This document shows positions 1 through 3,736 of a stretch of 4,459 bases of DNA, one piece after another. This DNA is from a virus (taxonomy: Duplodnaviria > Heunggongvirae > Uroviricota > Caudoviricetes): IMG/VR virus record IMGVR_UViG_2648501841_000012; one strand, 5' to 3'. The notes under the pieces are model-generated. The model saw nothing but the letters and a program-made list of their open reading frames with translations, was not told the origin of the DNA and made no database searches. The position numbers and the translations under genes are program-made. Position 1 is the first letter of the stretch; each line of letters starts with the position of its first letter.

Positions 1-252
1 GTTCGCCAGCAGCGGCTGAAATTAAGCCTGTCCGGACGGCTGGCAATAAAAATTATTGCAGAACCACCGGATAAGCGCCGCCGTGACCTGGACAACATTC
101 TGAAAGCACCGCTGGATGCGCTGACGCATGCGGAAGTGCTCATTGATGTCGAGCAGTTGGATGAAATCAATATTGTGCGCGGTCAGCCTGTGCCAGGTGG
201 ACGGCTGGGCGTGAAGATTTACGAAATCAGAGGTGGTAACGATGGCGCGTGA
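1..252 (+). CDS. rusA: RusA-family Holliday junction resolvase, C-terminal part (5' end upstream of window)
   Basis: Frame 1 is open from base 1 to TGA at 250-252. Translation ends ...[65 protein letters not shown], which carries the RusA signature block (RRRDLDN..K...DAL...V.DD.Q) as recalled for DLP12/lambdoid RusA. Absent from the supplied ORF track only because it has no in-window start. Confidence 0.85.
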
Positions 253-613
253 TATCCAGATGGTTCTTGAGCGATGGGGGGCATGGGCAGCAAATAATCA
301 TGAAGATGTAACATGGCCCTCGATAGCTGCTGGTTTTAAAGGATTAATCCCGACTAAAGTGAAATCACGTCCTAAGTGTTCTGATGATGACGCCATGATA
401 ATTTGTGGTTGTATGGCACGATTAAACAAGAATAATCAGTATTTGCACGATTTGTTGGTGGATTATTACGTAGGTGGAATGACATTTATGGCTCTTGCAC
501 GTAAGCATAGATGTTCTGATGGGCTTATTGGTAAAAGGCTTTATAAAGCGGAAGGTATTATTGAAGGAATGCTTATGGCTCTGAATGTCCGGTTAGATAT
601 GGATATGCGGTAG
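242..613 (+). CDS. Q: Late-gene antitermination protein Q (small Q type of Qin/phage 21/933W-like lambdoid phages)
   Basis: Track ORF 233-613. I prefer ATG at 242 ([25 protein letters not shown]...) with GAGGTGG at 229-235 as Shine-Dalgarno over the GTG at 233. The N-terminal sequence is recognisably the small Q antiterminator family (memory-based, not searched). It sits immediately after rusA, the canonical lambdoid order, and its start overlaps the rusA stop by 11 nt. Stop TAG at 611-613. Confidence 0.8.
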
Positions 614-764
614 GGATATATAGTGATGAGGGTTATGTTTTCTGTGTTTATAATTAACATGTTTATTTTTTGATGGTCATGTATTGTGGAAGGTAGATAA
701 AATGTTGCCTGGTGAATTGAAAATATTGATAATCAATCTTCATCATTAAATAAAAGGAGTGCTT

Positions 765-1583
765 ATGTGGATTGTGTTAGTACTGTCACTGTCAACTCTC
801 AGTTGGCATAAGGTAGTGGCTTTTTCATTGTTGACGGTGTCTGTTGTCCTGGCTGTGCTTAATGATATTATTGATTGGTCGGTGTTATTTTTTGTTGCTA
901 CAATCGTTTTTTTTATTATTTTGAAGTTCAACTGGAAATATAACGCCTGGGCTAAATCTATATATGAAGTTGGCATAGTTTTATCAGCCATAGCATTATT
1001 TTTCCATCTATGGCCAGGGTTTCACAATCCTGTAGTGCTAAATTCTGTTACTGTTGGCCCTCAAAGTACTCCCTATACAATGTATTTTAATTTTGATAAA
1101 GCGCTGGTGCCATTTTTGTTAGTCCTGTGTACATCTTCTTTGTTTAAAAAAGAAGTAAAATCAGAAGTGTCTTTGTGGAAGTGGGGGGCTCTGTCGCTCT
1201 CTGTTCCTCTTATCCTGTTTTTGGCTGTTTTTTTTGGTGGATTAAAGCCAGAGATTCATTTTCCTGAGTGGTTGCCAGAGTTTATATTGGCTAATTTGTT
1301 TTTTGTGTCTCTGGCAGAGGAATCATTATTTAGAGGGTATATTCAATCACGGCTATCAGAAGTAACGTCTCCATTGGTTGCATTAATTGTGGCGGCTTTG
1401 TTGTTTGGTTTTTATCACTATTCAGGTGGTGCTTTACTTGTATTATTTGCCACGTTATCTGGTGTTGTGTATGGATTGTCATGGATGTGGAGTGGGCGTT
1501 TGTGGGTTGCCACCCTTTTCCATTTTGGTTTGAATCTGTGTCACTTGTTATTCTTTACCTATCCATTTTTAAAACATAATTGA
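765..1583 (+). CDS. CPBP-family (CAAX protease / Abi, PF02517-like) intramembrane glutamic endopeptidase; polytopic membrane protein
   Basis: Track ORF 759-1583. ATG at 765 with AAGGAG (754-759) 5 nt upstream is preferred over GTG 759. The protein is highly hydrophobic with multiple predicted TM segments. The three CPBP catalytic motifs occur in order: EExxxR (SLAEESLFRG), FxxxH (LFGFYHY), HxxxN (FHFGLNL). The gene is markedly AT-rich compared with rusA and nanS-p. Confidence 0.8.
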   Translation: MWIVLVLSLSTLSWHKVVAFSLLTVSVVLAVLNDIIDWSVLFFVATIVFFIILKFNWKYNAWAKSIYEVGIVLSAIALFFHLWPGFHNPVVLNSVTVGPQSTPYTMYFNFDKALVPFLLVLCTSSLFKKEVKSEVSLWKWGALSLSVPLILFLAVFFGGLKPEIHFPEWLPEFILANLFFVSLAEESLFRGYIQSRLSEVTSPLVALIVAALLFGFYHYSGGALLVLFATLSGVVYGLSWMWSGRLWVATLFHFGLNLCHLLFFTYPFLKHN

Positions 1584-1663: not shown

Positions 1664-1677
1664 TTTACGTACGTAAA
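1664..1677. repeat. Perfect 14-bp palindrome TTTACGTACGTAAA; candidate binding site for a dimeric DNA-binding protein
   Basis: Bases 1664-1677 equal their own reverse complement. An adjacent inverted repeat TGCAT-N7-ATGCA lies at 1638-1654. Both are in the intergenic region about 50-90 nt upstream of the 1725-1746 terminator. Function is not established. Confidence 0.5.
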
Positions 1678-1724
1678 AAATCAGGTATGCTGTTAAGAGT
1701 GGTTATTTCGCCGCATAGCTTGAC

Positions 1725-1746
1725 CCCGCCTCTGAGCGGGTTTTTT
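1725..1746 (+). terminator. Rho-independent terminator
   Basis: All-GC 5-bp stem CCCGC (1725-1729) / GCGGG (1736-1740), 6-nt loop CTCTGA, followed by TTTTTT (1741-1746). It lies 140 nt downstream of the CPBP stop codon. Confidence 0.65.
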
Positions 1747-1869
1747 GTGCCCGCAAAGTAGCGCAGTGCGTTAAATGTGCTGGTAGTTATTAATACAGGT
1801 CTTTCAGCTTGCTGGCTTTTTCGACAAGAGTTATTGGTGTGTCACGTTAACCGGAAAGGGTAAAAAGAC

Positions 1870-2109
1870 ATGCTGAAACAGCAGGATATGACAGAAACCG
1901 CCAGAGTTGTGTTTGATGAATTAAGCGTCACCGAACCGGCGACGGTCGGGGAGATTGCGCAGAATACGTACCTTTCACGCGAGCGCTGCCAGTTAATACT
2001 GACCCAGCTGGTTATGCGGGTCTGGCAGACTATCAGTTCGGTTGTTACAGACGCCTTCAGTCCTGAAGGCTTTTTTATTTGTGGTAAATGGGCGGCTGGT
2101 GGGTGTTAG
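1870..2109 (+). CDS. Hypothetical small protein (79 aa), possible helix-turn-helix; coding status uncertain
   Basis: Track ORF. GGAAAGGG lies 10 nt upstream of ATG 1870. Segment GEIAQNTYLSRERCQLILTQL looks like a helix-turn-helix recognition region, with weak unverified resemblance to small PapI/FaeA-like regulators. The frame runs straight through a canonical intrinsic terminator at 2053-2080 (hairpin encodes AFSPEG, T-run encodes FFIC), so a full-length translated product is doubtful. Confidence 0.4.
   Translation: MLKQQDMTETARVVFDELSVTEPATVGEIAQNTYLSRERCQLILTQLVMRVWQTISSVVTDAFSPEGFFICGKWAAGGC
2053..2080 (+). terminator. Rho-independent terminator embedded in the 3' end of ORF 1870-2109
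   Basis: 7-bp stem GCCTTCA (2053-2059) / TGAAGGC (2064-2070), 4-nt loop GTCC, followed by TTTTTTATTT (2071-2080). Confidence 0.7.
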
Positions 2110-2137
2110 CGGCACCTGTCAGTCCTTTGCTTATGTG

Positions 2138-2168
2138 TTGATGATAATTTACCTTTTGGGGCTATAAT
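2138..2168 (+). promoter_or_regulatory. Candidate sigma70 promoter for the AraC-family gene
   Basis: -35 TTGATG (2138-2143), 19-bp spacer, perfect -10 TATAAT (2163-2168), 35 nt upstream of ATG 2204. Consensus match only; the spacer is at the upper limit. Confidence 0.4.
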
Positions 2169-2203: not shown

Positions 2204-2917
2204 ATGGTTGTTGTCTGTTCAGTTATCATGGTTTGCTCCCCAATTAATATTTTTCTTGAAAAGGATACGTTGTCACTTAAGCCCGGCTCAGTCGTTCTGG
2301 CCACCAAATGCATCAGGGCGCTTTTCCTTATGCATTATGGCAAAGTTAAAATTTTCGATATAAACCATTCCATAGTAAGTCAATATCTGGAAATTCAGCA
2401 TAAGCTGACAAGAACTCATCTGACTGACGTTCCGCTTTATCTGTCACTGGAACCCAACAACCCTGCGTTGGCTGAGGCTTTAATTACCAGCCAGAGATTT
2501 TCCGGAGATACCACGGATATGTTTCTTATGATGGCATGCCTGTCGCTGTTTGAATCAGATGAACGGATATTATTATTTTTAAGTGGATGTTTATCCAGTA
2601 TAAGTGCCAAAGTCAGGGCGATAATTCAGACAGATATATCAGCAAGCTGGACGCTTGGTGCGATTGCGTTACGCCTGCATATGAGTGAGAGTTTGTTAAA
2701 GATAAAACTGAAAAATGAAGGGCACATGTTCAGTCGCTTGTTGCTGGAAGAGCGGATGCGTGTTGCTGTCAATATGTTATGTTCCCGGCATGGATATGGA
2801 CAGGCTGTAGCAGAAAAATGCGGTTATTCAAGCTGGTCCTACTTTATTTCTGTATTTCACCGCTATTATGGCTTCCCGCCAGACAGATATGTATCCAGGC
2901 AAGGGCTTGATTATTGA
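2204..2917 (+). CDS. AraC/XylS-family transcriptional regulator (prophage-borne; possibly PatE/Psr-like)
   Basis: Track ORF. The C-terminal ~100 aa carry the AraC double-HTH signature (WTLGAIALRLHMSESLLKIKLKNEGHMFSRLL ... GYSSWSYFISVFHRYYGFPPDRY). No obvious Shine-Dalgarno, so the start (2204 vs internal ATG 2228) is uncertain. By context it resembles the prophage-encoded AraC-like regulators described in EHEC (PatE, PsrA/PsrB); that is memory, not an alignment. Confidence 0.8.
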   Translation: MVVVCSVIMVCSPINIFLEKDTLSLKPGSVVLATKCIRALFLMHYGKVKIFDINHSIVSQYLEIQHKLTRTHLTDVPLYLSLEPNNPALAEALITSQRFSGDTTDMFLMMACLSLFESDERILLFLSGCLSSISAKVRAIIQTDISASWTLGAIALRLHMSESLLKIKLKNEGHMFSRLLLEERMRVAVNMLCSRHGYGQAVAEKCGYSSWSYFISVFHRYYGFPPDRYVSRQGLDY

Positions 2918-2945: not shown

Positions 2946-3021
2946 AGCCCTTTAGCTCAGTGGTGAGAGCGAGCGACTCATAATCGCCAGGTCGCTGGTT
3001 CAAATCCAGCAAGGGCCACCA
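2946..3021 (+). tRNA. ileZ: tRNA-Ile2 (anticodon CAU, lysidine type, reads AUA); could be auto-annotated as tRNA-Met
   Basis: Hand-folded 76-nt cloverleaf: acceptor AGCCCTT/AAGGGCC (A1:C72 mismatch), D-arm GCTC-AGTGGTGA-GAGC, anticodon arm AGCGA-CTCATAA-TCGCC (anticodon CAT at 2979-2981), T-arm GCTGG-TTCAAAT-CCAGC, discriminator A, encoded CCA. The arms closely match E. coli ileX-type tRNA-Ile2 as recalled. The symbol follows the ileZ-argN-argO naming of Stx-phage tRNAs and is memory-based. Confidence 0.85.
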
Positions 3022-3028
3022 TCACATA

Positions 3029-3105
3029 CCGCCATTAGCTCATCAGGAAAGAGCGCCAGCTTTCGAAGCTGGTTGCGCGGAGTTCGGGTCCCCGAAGGCG
3101 GTCCA
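3029..3105 (+). tRNA. argN: tRNA-Arg (anticodon UCG), atypical T-arm
   Basis: Hand-folded 77 nt: acceptor CCGCCAT/AAGGCGG (one A:A mismatch), D-arm GCTC-ATCAGGAAA-GAGC, anticodon arm CCAGC-TTTCGAA-GCTGG (U33, anticodon TCG at 3063-3065, A37), variable TTGCG, T-arm CGGAG-TTCGGGT-CCCCG (one mismatch, G at position 58 where A is usual), discriminator T, encoded CCA. The symbol is positional (middle gene of the trio) and memory-based. Confidence 0.6.
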
Positions 3106-3118
3106 TTATCTGTATCCT

Positions 3119-3195
3119 GCGTTGTTAGCTCAGCCGGACAGAGCAATTGCCTTCTAAGCAATCGGTCACTGGTTCGAATCCAGTACAACGCGCCA
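3119..3195 (+). tRNA. argO: tRNA-Arg (anticodon UCU, reads AGA/AGG)
   Basis: Hand-folded 77 nt: perfect acceptor GCGTTGT/ACAACGC, D-arm GCTC-AGCCGGACA-GAGC, anticodon arm ATTGC-CTTCTAA-GCAAT (anticodon TCT at 3153-3155), variable CGGTC, T-arm ACTGG-TTCGAAT-CCAGT, discriminator G, encoded CCA. Resembles the argU type. Confidence 0.85.
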
Positions 3196-3234: not shown

Positions 3235-3375
3235 AAATGTCTCACAATTCAGGCGGTTGACTGTTGTCTGGTTTGCGGGGAGTTTGTTAAAAGAAACTGG
3301 CATGGTGAATCCCCCTGTGCGGAGGGGCAATCAGCGAGTAGGTATATGGGATAATCGCGGATTCAGGTGCTGGTA

Positions 3376-3528
3376 NNNNNNNNNNNNNNNNNNNNNNNNN
3401 NNNNNNNNNNNNNNNNNNNNNNNNNNNNNNNNNNNNNNNNNNNNNNNNNNNNNNNNNNNNNNNNNNNNNNNNNNNNNNNNNNNNNNNNNNNNNNNNNNNN
3501 NNNNNNNNNNNNNNNNNNNNNNNNNNNN
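3376..3528. other. Run of 153 N (assembly gap or masked sequence); true length and content unknown
   Basis: Contiguous n characters from 3376 to 3528. All track ORFs with poly-X translations are artefacts of this run. Confidence 0.95.
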
Positions 3529-3736
3529 CAGGGAGACGCGGGCGGCAAGGAATAAACAACAAAACGTGAAGTAATATTTCAGCTGGCGAATAATATCCGA
3601 CAGTAATCACTCTGCGCAATAGCGCGGCCTTTTTCGTATTGCGGGCTGTTGTCTCTCTTCTGCCATTGTCCTGTAACTTCCGGACTTCAGCCCGCTCCTC
3701 ATTTTACTCACAATATTATCCCGGCCGGGAGGATTC

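Follow-up and report, generated by a model that had tools for sequence, protein, structure and literature searches.

Can an open reading frame (ORF) that runs through what looks like a strong intrinsic terminator be a functional gene? The question is raised by a 79-codon ORF in the window analysed here, the whole 4,459-nucleotide stretch of tailed-phage DNA (IMG/VR record IMGVR_UViG_2648501841_000012) to which all coordinates below refer. The first-pass annotation had remarked that the ORF overlaps a hairpin and T-run and stops about 30 nt beyond them, and this description holds: the stem-loop occupies positions 2053-2070, six Ts follow at 2071-2076, and the TAG (2107-2109) comes 31 nt past the T-run, with the hairpin, the T-run and the sequence beyond making up codons 61-79. 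At the other end, GGAAAGGG can be read directly at 1853-1860, and the ATG follows 9 nt later. The answer that we favour, with a probability of roughly 90%, is that the locus is a small protein-coding gene which a one-base deletion has inactivated in a single prophage lineage, that of Sp4 in E. coli O157:H7.

A small gene and its one-base deletion

Alignment of the ORF with four intact E. coli alleles reveals that a G is missing between positions 2016 and 2017 (ATGGCGGGT having become ATGCGGGT). This is the sole indel within the ORF, and re-inserting the G restores a frame of 65 amino acids. The translations of the intact alleles stop at a TGA located within the hairpin, corresponding to 2064-2066 in the window. 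The shift sets in after codon 49, and because the lost G makes the frame miss this TGA, the ORF runs on to a chance TAG and appears to read through the terminator. The resulting tail (RVWQTISS...KWAAGGC) has no counterpart among the orthologues, and the residues lost to the shift (A50, G51, L52, Y55, Q56, G58, C59, Y60, R62 and L63) vary little or not at all within the family. All three marks of a frameshifted pseudogene are found together: an indel that changes the frame, a common intact form beside a disrupted one limited to a single lineage, and conserved residues lost downstream.

A true 3' end displaced by a frameshift was among the alternatives of the first-pass annotation, and it is the one borne out by the orthologues, with their extra G and their TGA in the hairpin, and by the 'frameshifted' label of PGAP. 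Its suspicion of a mis-called gene was right as regards the 79-codon call, which the Sakai record contains as ECs_1086; the locus itself, however, is a genuine protein gene fallen into decay, not a spurious one. As for whether the ORF or the hairpin is the conserved element, the orthologues do not keep the 79-codon ORF; what they keep is an ORF of 63-65 codons with a codon-level pattern of conservation, and the hairpin as well.

The pseudogene is not new to the databases. RefSeq/PGAP reaches the same conclusion for the same locus in NZ_AP018488.1, whose sequence matches the window at 100% identity, and annotates 1870-2066 as a frameshifted pseudogene, under the name 'TrmB family transcriptional regulator, frameshifted' (e.g. 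ECpv15279_RS05550). The older Sakai record differs, with a 240-nt, 79-aa ORF annotated as ECs_1086 in prophage Sp4, upstream of psrA; adding 1,176,473 to a window position gives the coordinate in Sakai NC_002695.2. The conflict between ORF and terminator thus has an ordinary cause, the pseudogene status of the locus having already been flagged in RefSeq.

Table 1. Features of the window around the small gene
Feature	Position	Strand	Basis or remarks
Q antiterminator gene, Q933-like	233..613	+	Pfam Phage_antitermQ, E = 8.7e-52; annotated antiterminator Q
Late promoter pR' homologue	1664..1691	+	-35 TTTACG (1664-1669), 16-nt spacer, -10 TATGCT (1686-1691)
First terminator-like hairpin after pR'	1725..1746	+	Terminator scan; CCCGC/GCGGG + T6
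Conserved box	1808..1845	+	CTTGCTG-N-AGAGTTAT..TGT.TGTCAC, ahead of the small gene
79-codon ORF	1870..2109	+	ATG start, 79 aa; codons 50-79 are out-of-frame read-through
Frameshifted pseudogene of 65-aa small protein (ECs_1086 locus)	1870..2066	+	PGAP 'frameshifted'; ancestral stop TGA 2064-2066
Intrinsic-terminator-like hairpin + T6	2053..2076	+	Stem 2053-2059/2064-2070, loop 2060-2063; overlaps ancestral stop
Remnant (first ~55 nt) of conserved ~135-nt leader	2084..2140	+	Elsewhere ahead of DNA methyltransferase
psrA (ECs1087), AraC-like regulator	2204..2917	+	Next gene downstream; Pfam HTH_18 / HTH_AraC

The intact gene, of 63-65 codons, belongs to a sizeable family. It matches PHROG 331, a family annotated with no function (E = 6e-37), and has 295 homologues, typically of 63-65 aa, in Escherichia, Shigella, Salmonella, Klebsiella, Citrobacter and Buttiauxella, with additional loci in Kluyvera, Proteus and others; WP_000917737.1, WP_000917767.1 and WP_000917763.1 are intact relatives of 65 aa. 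In comparisons with other genera, synonymous differences approach saturation (pS 0.74-0.85) and non-synonymous ones are few (pN 0.08-0.13). The median pN/pS is 0.19 (322 pairs) and the median dN/dS 0.09, values which indicate that the small protein is under purifying selection across the Enterobacterales.

A hint of the nature of this protein comes from its predicted fold. Among Pfam models, TrmB comes nearest (E = 0.003), its 17.8 bits being below the cut-off of 25.6, and DprA_WH, MarR_2 and HTH_20 match more weakly; the 'TrmB family' of the PGAP name is unsupported at the curated Pfam threshold. Sequence searches of the 65-aa protein against NCBIfam, PADLOC and PDB gave no significant match. 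A structure model has helices at residues 4-18, 26-33 and 37-49 and a short fourth one, with a mean pLDDT of 62, and the top Foldseek matches to it are all winged-helix domains (IclR, Lrp/AsnC, MarR, Z-alpha), the best E-value being only 0.35. Because the structure prediction is of low confidence, the fold search only hints at the fold class; the small protein is probably a winged-helix DNA-binding protein.

The deletion allele occurs in 360 of 5426 complete E. coli genomes, at exactly one place in each; O157:H7 accounts for most of the strains listed. The intact allele was found at 2881 places in 1768 genomes, and one O157:H7 genome carries a second, intact copy upstream of another AraC-like gene. 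The deletion is restricted to one lineage and the intact form is spread over many genera. In that lineage, an RNA ending at the terminator would offer ribosomes no in-frame stop and would call for ribosome rescue, and an RNA reading through it would yield a protein deprived of the conserved C-terminal third. The Sp4 copy is thus most likely non-functional on terminated and read-through RNA alike, although a truncated or altered 79-aa product may conceivably retain some residual activity.

The stop-codon hairpin and its probable late-operon setting

The hairpin overlapping the ancestral stop consists of GCCTTCA (2053-2059), a GTCC loop (2060-2063) and TGAAGGC (2064-2070), followed by TTTTTT (2071-2076) and ATTT. 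The terminator scan found in it the stem, loop and U-tract expected of an intrinsic terminator (7 pairs, 4 of them G-C, around a 4-nt loop), and RNAfold gives it -10.5 kcal/mol (z = -3.08), with 2 of 200 shuffled sequences folding as well. Since the window contains nine terminator-like sites and its shuffles 4.6 +/- 2.0, a single scan match is weak evidence by itself. This one is no chance match, however, because a hairpin is kept at the same place, over the stop codon or directly adjoining it, in 23 of 25 orthologous loci despite different stems. There are at least seven different stem sequences among the loci, with compensatory changes (for example GCCTTCA/TGAAGGC, GCCTCCA/TGGGGGC, GCTGCCA/TGGCGGT and GCTGCCAG/CTGGTGGC), and the stop codon is found either in the loop or in the 3' arm. 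These structures were folded locus by locus, RNAalifold having missed the hairpin on alignment A3, in which MAFFT had split its loop. With the stop inside or beside the hairpin, a transcript of the intact gene ending at the T-run keeps its stop codon. The T-tract is well developed (7/8 T) only in the E. coli/phiP27 type and comprises 2-6 of 8 positions in the other loci; given so poor a T-tract beyond the E. coli type, the hairpin may have been conserved for something other than termination.

Homology of the region upstream suggests that the gene lies in the leader of a late operon. The Q of the window is 80% identical to that of the Sakai Stx2 prophage Sp5, and positions 1664-1752 give a 75% alignment with the DNA just after the Sp5 Q. 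The Sp5 pR' start was located by dRNA-seq 258 nt before tR' (PMC7547250). On the Sp5 sequence, this published start falls just after TTTACG-N16-TATCAT, and by homology the pR' transcript of the window would start near 1695-1696. The block formed by the -10 hexamer and GTTAAGAGTGGTTA recurs in O158, G8, cdtI and phiP27.

A first terminator-like hairpin follows behind three types of pR'/Q (Q933-like, lambda-like with TAACGATGGG, and a third type), its stem and loop varying in sequence; taken alone, the fold of the window's copy is unexceptional (z = -0.85). Leader hairpins of this kind need not terminate efficiently, since the Sp5 counterpart sits inside the 258-nt transcript. Farther on, the conserved box contains two blocks with little or no variation across the 18 aligned sequences, that of Proteus included, separated by a spacer of fixed length and variable sequence. 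The box may be bound by a protein, or it may represent the small gene's own promoter (-35 TTGCTG, 17 nt, -10 TATTGG). The final T usual in a -10 hexamer is missing from this candidate, for which the promoter scan has no entry. By eye, neither a sigma-54 promoter nor an IHF site nor a small helix in the 5' UTR fits the box across genera.

The same module lies behind different Q types with different promoter blocks, in each case after Q and a pR' matched to the Q type, which is the location expected of a Q-antiterminated late leader. Judging by homology, the order in the window would be a Q933-like Q, an inserted CPBP gene, the pR' homologue, the first hairpin with its T-run and the conserved box, followed by the small gene with its terminator and then psrA, tRNAs and late genes. 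The terminator at 2053-2076 would most likely act as a barrier to unmodified RNA polymerase in the lysogen, to be overridden by Q-modified polymerase after induction. Such a Q-overridable terminator, another of the alternatives of the first-pass annotation, is plausible because by homology the gene sits in a late-operon leader behind a Q933-like Q and its pR', and it fits the position downstream of a homologue of the Sp5 promoter.

A close parallel is the pR'-tR' leader of Stx phages, the source of the small RNA StxS (Sy et al. 2020, PMC7547250). Both leaders occupy the same place on the map after a Q933-type Q, with homologous pR' promoters and the same promoter-proximal hairpin, and both have a terminator that would stop constitutive late-promoter RNA in a lysogen, as predicted from sequence for the window. 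They differ in that their sequences are unrelated after the first 90 nt and in that the leader of the window carries a conserved 65-codon gene; its terminator would lie about 380 nt from a start placed by homology, as against 258 nt in Sp5. Another related system, beside the Stx-phage leader, is the 6S RNA of lambda. The small gene also recalls the morons of lambdoid phages, genes that carry a promoter and terminator of their own and are inserted into the late operon close to pR' (a concept used by Tree et al. 2014, PMC4104026). Like them, it stands with a terminator of its own downstream of pR', with a two-block box of fixed spacing ahead. Unlike them, it has only a candidate promoter (the -10 without final T), and it is a widely conserved part of an arrangement of Q, methyltransferase and lysis genes rather than a sporadic insertion.

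Methyltransferase, psrA and a putative cassette

In other phages, a strongly conserved and apparently structured leader links the small gene to a DNA methyltransferase. The remnant of this leader in the window contains a long hairpin, P1 (2094-2124), and the Chi sequence GCTGGTGG (2095-2102), and homology to the methyltransferase-type loci ends near 2140. In the full leader, a predicted helix pairs GGUCA with UGAUC directly ahead of the methyltransferase AUG. In all of these loci (21/21) the small gene is directly upstream of the methyltransferase, and in phages cdtI, phiNP, yong2 and phiP27 Q is followed by the small gene, the methyltransferase and then tRNAs/stx or lysis genes. The small gene is also found upstream of AraC-like genes such as psrA, for which the nearest NCBIfam models are YdeO and GadX, both below cut-off. 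The identity of psrA with ecs1087 in Sp4 (PMC13502914) was the only statement found by a literature search by locus tag, and a paper on the pR' region (PMC6266700) has nothing on the small ORF in its text. The promoter scan places a promoter-like site at 2141-2168 (ATGATA-16-TATAAT, 10/12 match).

An analogy comes from restriction-modification systems, whose controller (C) proteins, small regulators of the helix-turn-helix type, have their genes just ahead of the one that they control. A putative DNA-binding protein of 63-65 aa immediately 5' of a DNA methyltransferase resembles this layout, and the likeness is one of resemblance only: no sequence similarity to C proteins was found, there is no restriction gene, and the small gene also lies ahead of AraC-like genes.

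It could be imagined from these arrangements that, in many enterobacterial lambdoid phages, the late operon opens with an undescribed regulatory cassette made up of the small gene, the stop-codon hairpin and the ~135-nt leader. Expression of the DNA methyltransferase downstream may then be set by the winged-helix protein, the structured leader or both. In Sp4, psrA may have replaced the methyltransferase, with the leader cut to ~55 nt, and the frameshifted gene may survive only within a constitutive pR' leader RNA ending at 2076-2080, for which a StxS-like role is possible. Taken as a whole, this cassette is a doubtful proposition.

Other readings of the locus and what it implies

The first-pass annotation had also proposed a small RNA, and one may suppose that the locus is now a non-coding one, producing a constitutive RNA from pR' or the box that ends at 2076-2080 and acts, whole or processed, as a regulatory RNA like StxS. 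The unit does lie downstream of a homologue of the Sp5 pR', whose leader is cut by RNase E into the 74-nt Hfq-binding StxS (PMC7547250), and a hairpin with a U6 tail is typical of Hfq-dependent sRNAs. The Hfq study, moreover, left aside sites within 100 nt of annotated features, so that one inside the annotated ECs_1086 would have gone unseen. Similarity to StxS is nevertheless confined to the promoter-proximal 90 nt, homology to Sp5 stopping about there after the promoter, and the region is conserved as a protein, with saturated synonymous sites and low pN. Rfam has no match in 1600-2300, nor anything at the ORF, terminator or leader when the window (at E up to 1 or 0.1), the unmasked O157 locus and five orthologous loci are searched. 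None of the known prophage sRNAs StxS, AgvB, AsxR, HnrS, STnc100, Esr41 and Pas matches 1870-2109 in sequence or structure, and in the case of HnrS the sequence that defines it, the complement of the last 15 nt of mazF (derived from MG1655), is absent from the window and the loci compared.

In the available portion of the tables of Tree et al. 2014 there is no entry for ECs1086 or ECs1087. The Hfq-bound sRNAs of Sp4 that do appear in that portion, EcOnc05 and EcOnc08, map near 3330-3540, downstream of the tRNAs. The small-RNA proposal has thus found no backing, and we regard it as quite unlikely; with the frameshift limited to a single lineage, a function as RNA would be a secondary one. [quoted passage not shown]

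It is very unlikely that the 79-aa product represents a genuine protein variant with a new C-terminus of independent function, translated from RNA that reads through the terminator or is antiterminated by Q. The deletion allele is fixed once per genome in the 360 complete genomes, the first 49 residues with their three predicted helices (H4-18, H26-33, H37-49) are retained, and in two other rare variants of 79 aa (P0004 and P0009) a different change, close to the stop, leads to the same tail, PEGFFICGKWAAGGC. Each of these variants is, however, represented by only two sequences, and fixation in a clonal lineage such as O157:H7 is no proof of selection. The new tail is simply what results when the hairpin and the conserved non-coding leader are read out of frame, it displaces the invariant or near-invariant residues of the A50-L63 set, and PGAP calls the locus a pseudogene.

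There is next to no chance that the missing G is an error of sequencing or assembly, or that it is corrected by programmed frameshifting during expression: single-base indels in a short G run (GG to G) are a common type of error, but the run has only two bases, the deletion allele recurs at 100% identity in 349 records that come from many different laboratories and platforms, every time at a single place in the genome and with the intact allele in other prophages of the same genomes, and the site as read has no slippery heptamer (none at 2010-2020) or stimulatory structure, the relatives encoding the protein in a single frame. The deletion is real. It is likewise very unlikely that the intact form is the artefact, with its 2881 places against 360.

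A small gene inactivated by one lost base therefore accounts for the ORF. This corrects the old 79-aa annotation of ECs_1086, a correction that the current RefSeq pipeline already embodies with its frameshifted pseudogene. Where a stop codon is placed inside a terminator hairpin, any upstream -1 deletion will create an ORF that seems to read through the terminator, and such an ORF can serve as a quick flag for a pseudogene. In Sp4, psrA, which regulates acid resistance and type III secretion in EHEC, comes immediately after a late-operon leader containing two terminator-like hairpins, a position that bears on its possible coupling to prophage induction. In the phages that have kept it, the conserved leader may perhaps represent a cis-acting RNA, as yet undescribed, that belongs to phage methyltransferase genes.

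A frameshifted copy of a small prophage gene

E. coli O157:H7 chromosomes match the window at 100% identity; in strain Sakai, this is the late regulatory region of prophage Sp4. The first-pass annotation had drawn attention to an ORF whose last codons run through a hairpin and a T-run, and the sequence, the ORF listing and a terminator scan bear out the position of every element, including the Shine-Dalgarno-like GGAAAGGG. The observation is correct; its explanation is ordinary, and already on record in the current RefSeq annotation, PGAP labelling 1870-2066 as 'TrmB family transcriptional regulator, frameshifted'.

Features of the Sp4 late regulatory region (window positions unless a locus is named)
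Feature	Position	Strand	Remarks
rusA, end of gene			first in window gene order
Q	233-613	+	Pfam Phage_antitermQ; 80% identical to Q of Stx2 prophage Sp5
CPBP/Rce1-like intramembrane protease gene	759-1583	+	274 aa; PHROG 13291
pR' homologue	TTTACG 1664-1669, N16, TATGCT 1686-1691	+	then GTTAAGAGTGGTTA as in Sp5
Hairpin 1 and T6	1725-1746	+	~30 nt after inferred start
Two-block conserved box	1808-1845	+	CTTGCTG then AGAGTTAT..TGT.TGTCAC, fixed distance
79-codon ORF	1870-2109	+	ECs_1086
Terminator-like hairpin	2053-2059 / 2064-2070	+	stem GCCTTCA/TGAAGGC; loop GTCC 2060-2063
T-run (T6)	2071-2076	+	directly after hairpin stem
Leader remnant	2084-2140		first ~55 nt; rest replaced by psrA promoter region
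Long hairpin of leader	2094-2124
Chi sequence GCTGGTGG	2095-2102	+	part of long hairpin's 5' arm
Stop codon of 79-codon ORF	2107-2109		TAG
psrA	2204-2917	+	AraC-like; ECs_1087
Three tRNA genes	2946-3195
Masked N run	3376-3528		between tRNA genes and esterase gene
SASA-family esterase gene			last in window gene order
Complete leader	L005:1860-1994, L009:1708-1842, L027:2720-2854 and others		loci with the full ~135 nt

At the corresponding place, O145, G8, O158:H23 and 55989 carry an intact gene of 198 nt, encoding 65 aa and ending in ...AGLADYQ(F/C)GCYRRLQS (...RLPQ in 55989). Alignment with these relatives leaves a single length difference inside the ORF, ATGGCGGGT in the relatives versus ATGCGGGT in the window, which lacks one G between 2016 and 2017. 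The frame shift falls after codon 49, and the 65-aa protein is regained once the missing G is put back; beyond that point, codons 50-79 of the ORF read out of frame through the end of the gene, the terminator and what follows. Two rare database proteins of 79 aa from E. coli and Shigella (P0004 and P0009) lost the stop codon by a different, adjoining change. Their tail is the same out-of-frame PEGFFICGKWAAGGC as in the window's ORF, which shows that the 'read-through' ORF arises from any such shift.

The deletion is real and limited to one lineage. A 45-nt probe with the deletion at its centre, unable to seed on the other allele, found the deletion allele in 360 of 5426 complete genomes (349 of the 360 matching at 100%), always at one place per genome, O157:H7 making up most of the strains listed. 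The intact allele, sought with the matching probe containing the G, occurs at 2881 places in 1768 genomes, with as many as six in one genome, including other prophages of O157:H7 genomes. In O157:H7 F8492 (relative locus L031:2375-3421), an intact small gene (WP_000917763.1) in another prophage is directly followed by a second AraC-like gene and tRNA genes, with a DUF1133 protein gene before it.

Judged by sequence comparison, the intact small gene is a real protein gene. Its product is a member of PHROG 331 (E = 6e-37) with 295 detectable relatives, mostly of 63-65 aa, in Escherichia, Shigella, Salmonella, Klebsiella, Citrobacter and Buttiauxella; further loci occur in Kluyvera, Scandinavium, Phytobacter and Proteus and in phages phiP27, SfV, cdtI, phiNP and yong2. 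Against other genera, pS is 0.74-0.85 (near saturation) versus a pN of 0.08-0.13, with a median pN/pS of 0.19 over 322 pairs; an earlier estimate gave a median dN/dS of 0.09. Weak, sub-threshold Pfam matches (TrmB, DprA_WH, MarR_2 and HTH_20), a three-helix structure model of modest confidence (pLDDT 62) and fold-search matches that are all winged-helix domains, none of them significant, point to a small winged-helix domain. Searches with the 65-aa protein against NCBIfam, PADLOC and PDB sequences gave no significant match, and membership of the TrmB family is not established.

The hairpin over the stop codon

The TGA of the intact gene is formed by the first three bases of the hairpin's 3' arm (2064-2066); with the true stop codon inside the hairpin, the two elements are compatible. 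Where the first-pass annotation had wanted to decide which of the two, ORF or hairpin, is the conserved element, both are: the gene is kept at 63-65 codons with a low pN, and the hairpin, each locus being folded on its own, lies over the stop codon or right next to it in 23 of 25 loci, the exceptions being two Proteus loci. Stems vary (GCCTTCA/TGAAGGC, GCCTTC/GAAGGC, GCCTCCA/TGGGGGC, GCCTCC/GGAGGC, CTCCGC/GCGGAG, GCTGCCA/TGGCGGT and GCTGCCAG/CTGGTGGC), pairing being kept via changes on both sides. With a predicted fold of -10.5 kcal/mol (2053-2070; z = -3.08), the window's hairpin and T-run look like a good terminator. The T-tract is canonical in the E. coli/phiP27 type only (7/8 T), other loci having 2-6 of 8, and termination may not be the sole conserved role of the hairpin.

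The noncoding RNA ending at this terminator that had been proposed as an alternative finds no support. No Rfam family matches 1600-2300, HnrS is absent (its mazF-complementary sequence was sought), StxS is unrelated to the window beyond the promoter-proximal part, and the Sp4 sRNAs EcOnc05 and EcOnc08 shown in the tables of an Hfq study (Tree et al. 2014, PMC4104026) lie downstream of the tRNA genes, not at the ORF. That study left out sites near annotated ORFs, which leaves room for an RNA role of the decayed small-gene transcript; nothing speaks for one. EcOnc05 (+) and EcOnc08 (-) map to ~3333-3537, if numbering is equal in both versions of the Sakai record. Partly under the N run, 3272-3462 (+) is a full STnc100 sRNA gene in the unmasked O157 record (Rfam RF02076; 138 bits versus a gathering score of 47), of which the window shows the 5' part only (29.8 bits).

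A probable late promoter and a model of transcription through the region

The stretch 1664-1752 is homologous to the DNA directly after Q in Sp5, where the pR' start (dRNA-seq) and the tR' 3' end (Term-seq) are 258 nt apart (Sy et al., PMC7547250). Counted back from the tR' T-run, the Sp5 start falls just after TTTACG-N16-TATCAT; the window has TTTACG-N16-TATGCT followed by the same GTTAAGAGTGGTTA, which would place its pR' start near 1695. The CPBP/Rce1-like gene (no match in PADLOC) sits as an insert between Q and pR', separating the pR' homologue from its Q gene; at this spot other phages carry genes for a nucleoid-associated protein, a DUF4236 protein or a GIY-YIG nuclease, some on the opposite strand.

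Hairpin 1 is likewise placed after a lambda-type pR' (TAAATTTGCTCTAACGATGGG in 55989, with a PF03589 Q), a promoter resembling that of lambda itself, and also after a third type of promoter. The Sp5 counterpart of hairpin 1 spans about +28 to +50 of a transcript that still reaches 258 nt. All genera examined, Proteus included, have the conserved box ahead of the small gene, with a spacer of varying sequence; the box may be a promoter of the gene itself, with a poor -10 candidate, or a binding site.

Downstream, the AraC-like gene is psrA (ecs1087; PMC13502914), whose product is known as a prophage-encoded regulator of gadE and of type III secretion. Its start is at 2204 in PGAP (237 aa) and 126 nt further on, at window ~2330, in the Sakai record (588 nt); ahead of it, at 2141-2168, is a strong promoter-like site, ATGATA-16-TATAAT. 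The tRNA gene at 2946-3021 (+) is Met (CAT) according to ARAGORN and ileZ, a tRNA-Ile with anticodon CAT, in genome records.

The most likely model has four steps, the first, second and fourth of which we infer. In the lysogen, RNA started at pR', and perhaps RNA started at the box, would end at hairpin 1 or the terminator (2053-2076). After induction, Q-modified polymerase would pass both hairpins and reach psrA, the tRNAs and the late genes. From the intact gene, a terminated mRNA keeps its stop codon; from the Sp4 copy it would have none, and ribosome rescue would act on the product.

A conserved leader before a DNA methyltransferase gene

In all 21 loci, from many genera and phages, where the next gene encodes an N6_N4 DNA methyltransferase of ~350 aa, the small gene is separated from the methyltransferase ATG by ~135 nt of constant length. 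This leader has a mean conservation of 83%, versus 73% for the small ORF (leader higher in 187/190 pairs) and 75% for the first 600 nt of the methyltransferase gene (170/190 pairs). It has no conserved ORF in the aligned loci and no match in Rfam. RNAalifold predicts a long hairpin and a closing helix ending at the ATG of the methyltransferase gene; this ATG has a GATC before it and no Shine-Dalgarno sequence. In this structure 95% of cells are paired, and compensatory change occurs at six pairs, versus 1.6 +/- 0.9 in shuffles and 1-4 in slid controls, the structure coming from the same alignment. The Chi sequence in the long hairpin is kept in aligned enterobacterial loci except Hafnia phage yong2; in yong2 and Proteus, Chi is lost and the long hairpin kept through compensatory changes. 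Lying mostly outside the window's version of the locus, the conserved leader is the only part that may be new, and it is a candidate for an undescribed cis-regulatory RNA.
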